A stretch of 62,053 bases of DNA, the filler included, from Porpidia crustulata (Eukaryota): the NCBI GenBank assembly GCA_964255105.1. It is 7 parts of 7 records of this genome, joined end to end, with 100 filler letters (N's around TTAATTAATTAA, not from the genome) between each part and the next. Parts side by side here need not be neighbours in the genome. Positions count along the whole stretch, not along the records: positions 1 to 8,791 come from CAXUWE010001050.1; 6 more parts are not named here. One strand, given 5' to 3'. Below the pieces are notes generated by a model. The model saw only the letters and a program-made list of their open reading frames with translations, searched no databases and was not told where the DNA came from. The stretch's first letter is position 1. Every line of letters begins with the position of its first letter. Below, in pieces: positions 4,727 to 6,040 of the stretch. A program made the translations under genes and the position numbers.

Positions 4727-5416
4727 ATGGGAGCAATTTCTAGCTTCGTTGCCACTTTCGACCGTGACTTTTACAAGTATTCTGATATAGGGAAACGAGT
4801 CGAGGCGCTTTGCAAAGATAAACTACAGAATACAGTATTCCTTTGGCAATCTCGAGTAAAGAGCTCGGCGTCGCTAGAAGAGAAATTGAGAGCCCGTAGC
4901 AACGAGTACGAGGACGAAGCCGCCAACGTCGCTGATGTTCGGGATCTGGTAGGTGGAAGGATCATCTTGGCCCATATCGAAGATATCCGTCATGTCGAGA
5001 GGATTGTGAAGAAGACGTTCAATCTGGTCCGTCGAACTCAACATCCAAAGGCCAGCGAAGACATAGTGGACCCTGAGACACGATTCCGTGGTTATAATGG
5101 ACTCCATCTCTATGTAATACTGCAGGGTCACTCAGAACAAGAATGCTGGAACCCAGTCATTGAGATCCAAGTCATGACCGTTTTCATGTGGGCTTATACG
5201 ACGCTTCACCACGATGTTGTATACAAGAGACAGCATGGGCAGCCTTCCAAGGAATTGCTTTGGGATATAGATCTACTAAGAGGTGTTGCGAATGTAGGAG
5301 AGGTAGTTCTTAAGATGTATGACGAGCAGCTCTCTCAAAACGACATGCATCCAGACTTGCAGACCGGTGTACAGTCTATATTCGGTGAAAGAGCGTCTGG
5401 CGGACGGGAAACATAG
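4727..5416 (+). CDS. RelA/SpoT-domain protein (small alarmone synthetase-like nucleotidyltransferase)
   Basis: Intronless. Motifs SRVK, DLVGGRI, GYNGLHL, IEIQVMT and HDVVYK occur in RelA_SpoT synthetase order. First ATG is at 4727. Confidence 0.88.
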   Translation: MGAISSFVATFDRDFYKYSDIGKRVEALCKDKLQNTVFLWQSRVKSSASLEEKLRARSNEYEDEAANVADVRDLVGGRIILAHIEDIRHVERIVKKTFNLVRRTQHPKASEDIVDPETRFRGYNGLHLYVILQGHSEQECWNPVIEIQVMTVFMWAYTTLHHDVVYKRQHGQPSKELLWDIDLLRGVANVGEVVLKMYDEQLSQNDMHPDLQTGVQSIFGERASGGRET

Positions 5417-6040
5417 AGCCAAAGCGTTGTGCAGCTGCCAAACCCTCAACATGACAAACACGGAGCCGAGCTCAGCACTAGCCAATGGCTCGAAGCCTCA
5501 GTGCTCGAGAATCGCGCATATACTCTCCTTAGAACACAGACCGGAAATAAAGAAGCGCATTTCGGTAGTGTTGCAGAGGCTCGGCAGATCCTCCTCCACG
5601 GAATGACTGTATCGTCACACGACGGCCTCCCCGGTATCCGCCGTCTTCGAAAATTTTACCATCTAGCAGTCGCAGAAAGGAAGTTGGGCTCAAAACAGGG
5701 CCTGGATACCGGGGAGATGTTGAAGCATCTGGATCAGGCTGAGGCATACATGGACAAGGCCATCGGATTGGACATGCTGCCAGAGTTGGTTGGCGCACGA
5801 GAGCAGATGGCACTTGAGCAGCATATTCTTGGAGGGTTGAGGGCGAAACTAGAGTTCCGAATGCAGGTCAGGAACAGGGGGAGTACATGCAGGCTACTGA
5901 GTGATGCAATTGCTGGCATAAAAAGGGCTCTGAAAGACTTGGAAAAGGTTGACACAGTCAAACATGGGAAGAACACGGAATTTGCACGCGAATGGATCGA
6001 TTACTTTCGAAAGCTTCATACTAGATGGTCAATTAGATAA
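5417..6040 (+). CDS. In-frame helical (possibly TPR-like) extension of the RelA/SpoT gene beyond a single TAG
   Basis: Same frame as 4727-5416 and open from 5417 to 6040. No ATG near its start; amphipathic helical composition. Confidence 0.55.
   Translation, partial: SQSVVQLPNPQHDKHGAELSTSQWLEASVLENRAYTLLRTQTGNKEAHFGSVAEARQILLHGMTVSSHDGLPGIRRLRKFYHLAVAERKLGSKQGLDTGEMLKHLDQAEAYMDKAIGLDMLPELVGAREQMALEQHILGGLRAKLEFRMQVRNRGSTCRLLSDAIAGIKRALKDLEKVDTVKHGKNTEFAREWIDYFRKLHTRWSIR

Follow-up and report, generated by a model that had tools for sequence, protein, structure and literature searches.

There is, to our knowledge, no known stringent response in fungi. RelA_SpoT domains occur in these organisms as effectors of NOD-like receptors (NLRs), a 'minor yet intriguing' and uncharacterised class (PMC10197012), and are treated as rare and uncharacterised NLR effectors in the sources consulted (PMC4986451, PMC9815663, PMC12258605, PMC10197012). 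Here we describe a RelA_SpoT gene of Porpidia crustulata that lies in a window of 62,053 nucleotides, the whole stretch of DNA that was analysed, which comprises seven parts of assembly GCA_964255105.1 joined end to end with filler between them (the first, positions 1 to 8,791, from CAXUWE010001050.1). The gene is interrupted by a single in-frame TAG, beyond which 207 further codons are open, and an earlier note made from the sequence had read it as a fused toxin and sensor or antitoxin whose long and short forms might be switched by readthrough or editing, or as a recent nonsense allele. The gene is a member of a conserved family in lichen-forming ascomycetes; proteins of this family are about 435 amino acids long and combine an NLR-type RelA_SpoT domain, a disordered linker and a domain resembling tetratricopeptide repeats (TPRs). 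The account developed below, in which this family would encode an enzyme acting with a CorA-like partner and the stop is a lineage-specific CAG-to-TAG allele, not programmed recoding, is considered likely as a whole.

One of the closest described systems is the RelA_SpoT effector of fungal NLRs (PMC4986451, PMC10197012), which has the same domain at 42-53% identity, and the NLR paralogues found here carry the same CorA-like neighbour. The window gene differs from these receptors in that it has no NACHT or NPHP3_N domain and no ankyrin or WD repeats, and instead carries a TPR-like domain of 190 residues after the linker. The bacterial synthetases RelQ and RelP (Protein Data Bank (PDB) entries 5ded, 6fgk and 6ewz) are synthetase-only proteins, like the N-terminal part of the window gene, which keeps their RxKxxxSxxxK, DxxGxR, GYxxLH and ExQ motifs. 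However, the identity is only about 20%, EIQIRT has become EIQVMT and LEH has become LHH, and the fungal gene is eukaryotic and possesses an additional C-terminal domain. CapRel and other toxSAS proteins (PMC9712102, PMC11782079, 10.1101/2021.04.30.441581) join a domain of the small alarmone synthetase (SAS) type to a C-terminal domain on one chain, as does the family described here. The N-terminal part nevertheless matches CapRel weakly (7ztb and 9erv, E 0.37, against 5e-7 to 1e-5 for RelP and RelQ; Foldseek E 1.5e-3 to 2.9e-3 with a root mean square deviation (rmsd) of 15-16). The C-terminal domain of CapRel has a zinc-finger-like fold, whereas that of the window gene is predicted to be an all-helical TPR-like solenoid, and no CapRel C-terminal domain was among the matches listed. 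By analogy with CapRel, the presence of a SAS domain and a C-terminal domain on one chain makes an immune or abortive logic plausible.

Two further systems bear on the stop codon and on the neighbouring gene. Fungal genes corrected by A-to-I editing, namely PUK1 and AMD1 in Fusarium and zao/CHE1 in Neurospora and Fusarium, have an in-frame UAG in an otherwise intact, possibly immune-type costly gene, as is the case here (PMC11156358, PMC12754623, PMC10776026). Those described as functional have a conserved stop or demonstrated editing, whereas the orthologues of the window gene have CAG and the stop has no hairpin-loop context. In type III CRISPR systems, CorA effectors gated by SAM-AMP (PMC10600005, PMC12255297) are encoded beside a nucleotide-handling enzyme, and the window likewise has a nucleotide-handling type of enzyme beside a CorA-superfamily gene; this is an analogy and concerns the neighbour gene. 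Against the CRISPR systems, the locus is eukaryotic, uses another synthetase family, shows marginal CorA similarity confined to the membrane part, and has SMN rather than GMN. No description of a RelA_SpoT and TPR-like architecture was found in the fungal NLR literature searched, nor any relevant paper on a RelA_SpoT-CorA link or on fungal SAS proteins. The architecture of the family and its pairing with a CorA-like gene are thus undescribed in the literature searched, as a variant of the fungal NLR-effector theme.

Reading frame and family membership

A single frame extends from the ATG at 4727 to the TAA at 6038-6040, with the TAG at 5414-5416 (ACA TAG AGC) as its sole interruption, and its read-through product has 437 amino acids. 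No second stop or frameshift is present within the 207 codons past the TAG, and by our own arithmetic the chance of so many open codons with equal codon use is approximately (61/64)^207 = 5e-5. An intron covering the TAG was ruled out, given that homologues are colinear across the site with no gaps; the GT..AG candidates ending at 5416, read by eye, measure 32-49 nucleotides and none is a multiple of three. The frame, the stop and the intronless structure are therefore as the earlier note had described them.

A homologue search with the read-through product, with X at the stop, returned 59 proteins. Fourteen of these (P0002-P0015) are intact proteins of 428-462 amino acids that cover 98-100% of the query at 48-68% identity, so the extension behind the stop proved to be conserved. 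The named sources are lichen-forming fungi (Usnochroma carphineum and, more distantly, Gyalolechia, Letrouitia, Protoblastenia and Mycoblastus), and the 43 invariant columns of the family alignment are spread across both halves. Seven homologues consist of a RelA_SpoT domain only (P0024, P0029, P0037, P0051, P0056, P0057 and P0059; 278-305 amino acids). Most of the remainder are proteins of 450-765 amino acids in which PF04607 is followed by PF24883 and PF05729 (NACHT), with 42-53% identity to the N-terminal part of the window gene, an identity that bears out the kinship to NLR effector domains which had been suspected from the sequence.

The RelA_SpoT-NACHT proteins (P0018-P0055) match over the first 190-270 residues. 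The pairwise alignment with one of these NLRs, P0030, reaches residue 266, slightly past the stop, where the family motif LQLxNPQHD (L..NPQHD in the window) aligns with LRRTDPRHD. These alignments offer a weak hint that the family may have descended from an NLR whose NACHT domain and repeats were replaced. Two of the related loci introduced below (L009 and L016) encode RelA_SpoT, NPHP3_N and ankyrin repeats on one strand, with a winged helix in L009.

The synthetase domain

The N-terminal part matches PF04607 at residues 42-169 (E 4e-14; 53.3 bits, the cutoff being 27), which agrees with the proposed SAS-like, synthetase-only domain, and Pfam reported neither a hydrolase nor a NACHT family (PF05729 or PF24883) in either part of the gene, as the earlier note had also stated. 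The motifs quoted there (RVK, DLVGGR, GYNGLH, EIQV and HDVVYK) were all found, as R43-V-K45, D73-LVGG-R78, G122-YNGL-H127, E146-IQV and W155-AYTTLHHDVVY-K167. Among solved structures, the closest relative by sequence is RelP 6fgk (E 5e-7), in the alignment with which the first motif reads SRVKSSASLEEKL in the window and SRVKSFESIVNKL in RelP; the remaining motifs pair as DLVGGRII with DIAGVRII, GYNGLHLYV with GYRSLHLII, and EIQVMT..LHHDVVYK with EIQIRT..LEHKIYYK. Foldseek, queried with a moderately confident model of the N-terminal part, returned RelQ and RelP at E of about 1e-5 and template modelling scores (target) of 0.6-0.7; once related chains are included, the E values span 9e-6 to 2e-4 and the scores 0.55-0.72. 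The N-terminal part also matches the PADLOC defence candidate PDC-S33 (E 1.2e-11).

The ATP and Mg motifs of such synthetases are RxKxxxSxxxK, DxxGxR, (G)YxxxH and ExQxRT. The residues R43, K45, S49 and K53, D73..R78, Y123..H127 and E146-x-Q148 are matched in the RelP alignment and vary little or not at all in the family; in the family alignment this applies to the acidic D73 and E146 and to the first motif's basic residues. Because the Mg and ATP motifs are kept, we infer that the N-terminal domain of the intact family is probably an active, ATP-dependent pyrophosphokinase.

The C-terminal domain and linker

The model of the complete read-through product has a mean predicted local distance difference test (pLDDT) score of 64 and a predicted template modelling (pTM) score of 0.46, and consists of two better-modelled parts joined by a linker in which residues 188-252 fall below pLDDT 50. 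This low-confidence stretch includes the stop (residue 230). A separate model of the C-terminal part, built from an alignment with 28 relatives, has seven helices (pLDDT 91.6, pTM 0.84), so the helical extension that had been postulated behind the UAG corresponds to a conserved domain present in 14 full-length homologues.

A wide structural search with this domain (VIA) returned TPR proteins at Z 13-14, a level that by the tool's own note is often reached by helical repeats, with rmsd 3.2-5.7 over 142-177 aligned residues; the matches include 8jal, 2hr2, 7y83_D, 7v6p and 3ro3, among them NASP and LGN. Foldseek against the PDB gave nothing at E<=0.001, with 14-3-3 and TPR-CHAT proteins in the top rows. 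Pfam assigns the C-terminal part to no family (its TPR_8 match has E 0.27 only), a PDB profile search gave E 0.14 or worse, and a protein atlas returned bacterial hypothetical proteins with low recognition. On these results we call the domain TPR-like, and do not regard it as a member of a named TPR family.

The domain is 54-66% identical across the six family members listed. A phmmer search against 1.84 billion representatives found it in 39 proteins at E<=1e-3, most of which are stand-alone proteins of 110-180 amino acids at 26-40% identity (P0070-P0096). Pfam recognised nothing in the first 21 stand-alone or fused relatives save NPHP3_N in P0062. A profile search for longer fusions retrieved only six members of the same family, in a word-limited search that missed the protein P0097. 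Likewise, no NLR carrying the domain was seen, the search for longer proteins being word-limited, and hmmsearch of six-frame open reading frames (ORFs) detected no stand-alone gene for it in the 22 related loci or the window beyond the family itself. As judged from the proteins in which it occurs, the C-terminal domain is a module in its own right.

Two of the fused relatives are of interest individually. In P0062 the domain follows an NPHP3_N fragment, the one such case found, and this protein shows no significant similarity to the NLR P0030. In P0097 (599 amino acids) it follows an N-terminal part of about 430 residues with no Pfam match even at E 10 and none in the PDB. By eye, and by a consensus that we take to be that of PNP_UDP-type NLR effectors, this N-terminal part resembles such an effector, which Pfam and the PDB did not confirm.

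Origin of the in-frame stop

A metagenome scan yielded 22 related loci (L001-L022). Five of these (L001-L005) encode 437-residue proteins that are 67-69% identical to the window product, and are taken as orthologous because flanking genes are common to them and the window: the upstream gene has an orthologue in L002-L005 and L017 (75-84% identity), and the downstream gene in L001, L002, L005 and L006 (approximately 53%). The codon at the stop is CAG in all five orthologous loci (GCA CAG AGC CAA, against ACA TAG AGC CAA in the window), and the corresponding column, read by eye, has a sense residue in each of the 15 aligned homologues (Q in 10, R in 3, G in 1 and H in 1). Given that 5/5 orthologous loci have CAG, the stop fits a lineage-specific nonsense change, a single C-to-T transition from a glutamine codon to TAG. 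As the 207 codons that follow the stop have remained open, the allele is probably a recent one.

Comparison of the window with L001-L005 gave a synonymous divergence (dS) of 0.30-0.39, and ratios of nonsynonymous to synonymous divergence (dN/dS) of 0.41-0.47 for the N-terminal and 0.60-0.67 for the C-terminal part, which indicate a fast-evolving gene with both halves still under some constraint. The window sequence deviates at 7/120 conserved columns; the 12 closest intact homologues deviate at 3-9 of about 120, P0012 at 16 and P0015 at 30. The value lies within the intact range, and thus the window copy is not decayed overall.

The same TAG occurs in a Logan re-assembly contig of a public sequencing run, X1 (5391 bases, word depth of about 10), which shows 0 differences over 4400-5566 (1167 bases). 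This independent assembler argues against an assembly error. The run has 99% of the region's sampled words and is probably the source sample, so it does not represent a second individual, and contigs of runs X2 and X4 are small pieces, unrelated or related, that lie outside position 5414, while X3 contributed none. The alternative of a recent nonsense allele, which the earlier note had mentioned last, is thus borne out by the orthologous loci and the homologues, whereas its proposed switch between long and short forms found no support: the stop is unconserved, and the adenosine to be edited is predicted to be paired in a stem whose folding does not surpass that of shuffled sequences.

Several observations weigh against parts of this account. 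At columns with at least 90% agreement the window deviates at 0/69 positions in the N-terminal and 7/51 in the C-terminal part (Fisher p 0.002), the strongest skew of the 16 sequences (next p 0.069); at an 80% threshold the figures are 6/96 and 15/89 (p 0.035). The branch-length test disagrees with this column test. By maximum likelihood on a fixed tree, from which the partial sequences P0008 and P0016 were left out, the ratio of C-terminal to N-terminal terminal-branch length is 1.28 for the window within a family range of 0.61-1.49, and we conclude only that the stop is not ancient. The read-level support consists of contigs from one probable source sample, and contigs hide minor alleles since they drop rare variants, which leaves room for a wild-type allele at low frequency or for a systematic error common to both assemblies. 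In the synthetase domain, ExQxRT appears as EIQVMT, with M for R, and the window has H in place of the glutamate of the 'EH' pair. The earlier note had doubted activity for the latter reason; the deviation is real (LEH to LHH), but the position varies within the family between H, Q, E and D, and is LEH in the NLR paralogue P0030. Fungi do correct premature UAG codons by A-to-I editing, and 'nonsense' need not mean 'null' (PMC11156358, PMC12754623, PMC10776026).

Alternative explanations

If the TAG were an error of sequencing or assembly, or a rare variant that the assembler had fixed, the functional gene would have CAG. The single-base difference from the orthologous codon, the intact appearance of the remaining gene, the loss of rare variants from contigs and the probable identity of the X1 data with those of the window all speak for this explanation, which we nonetheless regard as unlikely since Logan, from an independent assembly, gives the same base without a single difference in the surrounding sequence. 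Correction of the mRNA by stage-specific A-to-I editing, in sexual structures or during infection, would convert UAG to UIG (Trp) and supply the full-length enzyme only then. A tryptophan should be tolerated in the variable, disordered linker, and the 207 codons downstream are intact. Fungal A-to-I editing strongly prefers U at -1, which is trivially present here, and often targets UAG (PMC11156358); about 70 Fusarium genes depend on such correction (PMC11156358, PMC10776026), and editing of a premature stop gates a costly antiviral module (PMC12754623). However, all five orthologous loci have a sense codon instead of a stop, and the predicted folds put the adenosine in a stem instead of a hairpin loop and do not surpass those of shuffled sequences (z +1.0, +0.9, 0.0). 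Eurotiomycetes and Leotiomycetes are nearer to the lichen fungi than Sordariomycetes are. Genome-wide editing has so far been found in Sordariomycetes and one Pezizomycete, whereas none was detected in the Eurotiomycete and the Leotiomycete tested, Aspergillus nidulans and Botrytis cinerea (PMC11156358). Editing is therefore judged quite improbable as the explanation of this stop.

An adaptive truncation, in which the usefulness of a stand-alone RelA_SpoT domain has preserved the stop while the C-terminal part decays, would account for the skew of deviations towards the C-terminal part and has natural counterparts in the short RelA_SpoT-only homologues. Those homologues may be partial gene models, though, the p value is only marginal once corrected for 16 sequences, the C-terminal terminal branch is not specially accelerated, and no second stop or frameshift has accumulated, so that this explanation appears very doubtful. 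Programmed readthrough, which would yield proteins of 229 and 437 residues from one mRNA, draws on the continuation of the frame into a conserved domain. Known leaky stop contexts have CAR-YYA after UAG or CUAG after UGA, from which the downstream AGC CAA AGC differs. The stop is also absent from all orthologues and homologues, and comparison of folds with shuffles revealed no stable downstream RNA structure, which makes readthrough the most improbable of the explanations considered. An ordinary lineage-specific nonsense allele in an otherwise intact gene is hence the reading that we carry forward.

The fast evolution of the gene (dN/dS 0.41-0.67), beside an adjoining CorA-like protein that is 75-84% identical to its orthologues, is of a kind typical of immune-type genes.

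The CorA-like neighbour

Upstream of the RelA_SpoT gene and on the same strand lies a two-exon gene whose product resembles CorA marginally. PF01544 (CorA) scores 27.6 bits (cutoff 27) over the C-terminal 60 residues only, which is the membrane part; ZntB and CorA entries in the PDB match weakly (E 0.03-0.09), as do the PADLOC CorA models (E 0.004-0.018). In place of the GMN of CorA, 72/103 CorA-like homologues have FSMN, and FGMN occurs in 3/103. The product of exon 1 is 82-84% identical to its orthologue and 46-56% to paralogues, and is placed by the protein atlas among hypothetical proteins of Ascomycota.

When nine neighbouring ORFs of the window were compared with the 22 loci by tblastn, only the two pieces of the CorA-like gene matched loci with paralogous RelA_SpoT genes. 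In L011/L012, L013/L015/L016 and L018, a CorA-like gene (45-56% identical) stands head-to-head with a RelA_SpoT gene at a distance of about 350-720 bases, and these RelA_SpoT genes are 41-50% identical to that of the window and have NLR-type downstream sequence. L022 has a CorA-like fragment where its contig ends; a RelA_SpoT fragment lies about 220 bases away from it, and a complete RelA_SpoT gene about 2.2 kb away. The CorA-like gene is absent from L007-L010 and L019-L021. It thus adjoins RelA_SpoT in the window, at orthologous loci and in paralogous RelA_SpoT-NLR groups, of which three or four show the pairing. Furthermore, for 18/59 RelA_SpoT homologues the longest source contig is exactly as long as that of one of the 103 CorA-like homologues (for example 4389, 9237, 9245, 10828, 47087 and 262824); equal size does not prove the same contig, although 18 coincidences are unlikely by chance. 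These 18 comprise five full-length family members, 12 proteins with NACHT-type Pfam domains and one short form. The recurrent adjacency suggests that RelA_SpoT and the CorA-like protein may constitute a functional two-gene module.

Among the paralogous RelA_SpoT-NACHT-ankyrin groups, that of L009 alone lacks a CorA-like neighbour. An ORF with TPR_10/TPR_12 matches lies about 2.2 kb upstream in the same locus (6785-7741, plus strand) and is probably the tail of another NLR.

Other features of the window

The remaining window resembles an ordinary fungal chromosome, with no further NLR seen; other genes encode Sir2, a CDF transporter, an FGGY kinase, a GNAT protein, a signal peptide peptidase, LSM14 and a kinase. 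The universal stress protein gene was not found within 10 kb in the orthologous loci, which places the end of synteny between the RelA_SpoT gene and this gene. The TRI5-like gene and the nearby cytochrome P450 fragment may form a small sesquiterpene cluster. Coordinates are collected in Table 1.

Table 1. Positions of the RelA_SpoT gene, its CorA-like neighbour and further features in the window.
Feature	Position	Strand	Basis or remark
CorA-like gene, exon 1	2525..3131	+	ATG 2525; 5' splice site GT at 3132
CorA-like gene, intron of 56 nt (GT..AG)	3132-3187	+	Own gene model
CorA-like gene, exon 2	3188..4077	+	Two C-terminal membrane helices around F-S-M-N; stop at 4077
RelA_SpoT N-terminal part, 229 codons with start of linker	4727..5413	+	PF04607; RelP/RelQ matches; identity to NLR N-termini
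In-frame TAG, residue 230, in low-confidence inter-domain linker	5414..5416	+	CAG in orthologues; same base in run X1 contig
207 open codons and TAA, predicted seven-helix TPR-like C-terminal domain	5417..6040	+	Helices at about residues 251-436 of read-through product
Universal stress protein (Usp), two overlapping ORF pieces	9886-11053	-	
TRI5-like (trichodiene-synthase family) terpene synthase, two ORF pieces	21518-22781	-	E 1e-93, 8e-69
Cytochrome P450 fragment, ~1.7 kb from TRI5-like gene	24438-25376	+	
PDDEXK_12 PD-(D/E)XK nuclease domain, uninterrupted ORF of 505 aa	48050-49567	-	E 4e-66

Proposed function and significance

In the window allele the TAG would end translation after residue 229, and the outcome would be either a stand-alone synthetase domain or little product, should the long 3' region trigger decay of the mRNA. 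In intact members, the TPR-like domain holds the place that NACHT and ankyrin repeats occupy in the paralogous NLRs, and may serve as the regulatory or ligand-binding part, and the enzyme may work together with the adjacent CorA-like membrane protein.

A bolder proposal, to which we assign a low probability, is that RelA_SpoT proteins of filamentous fungi, in both their NACHT-ankyrin NLR and their TPR-like forms, generate the signal in a conserved two-gene module of immunity or cell death whose other half is the CorA-like SMN protein, and that the TPR-controlled copy in the window has lost its control domain through the stop, perhaps conditionally reversed by editing of the UAG. On activation the pyrophosphokinase would produce a nucleotide such as (p)ppGpp or (pp)pApp, or would modify a target, and this nucleotide or modified target would then open or activate the neighbouring membrane protein. 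If true, the module would give eukaryotes an equivalent of the second-messenger defence of bacteria, as exemplified by the action of SAM-AMP on CorA in type III CRISPR.

Viewed apart from that proposal, the locus presents a non-NLR architecture for the RelA_SpoT effector, with a TPR-like domain instead of NACHT and repeats. The natural truncation between both domains is a ready-made 'effector only' allele that can be set against the intact orthologues, and the stop codon itself is to be regarded as an ordinary nonsense mutation unless RNA shows otherwise. The CorA-like neighbour, common to NLR and non-NLR forms, turns the association into a concrete and testable two-component hypothesis for this effector class in fungi.

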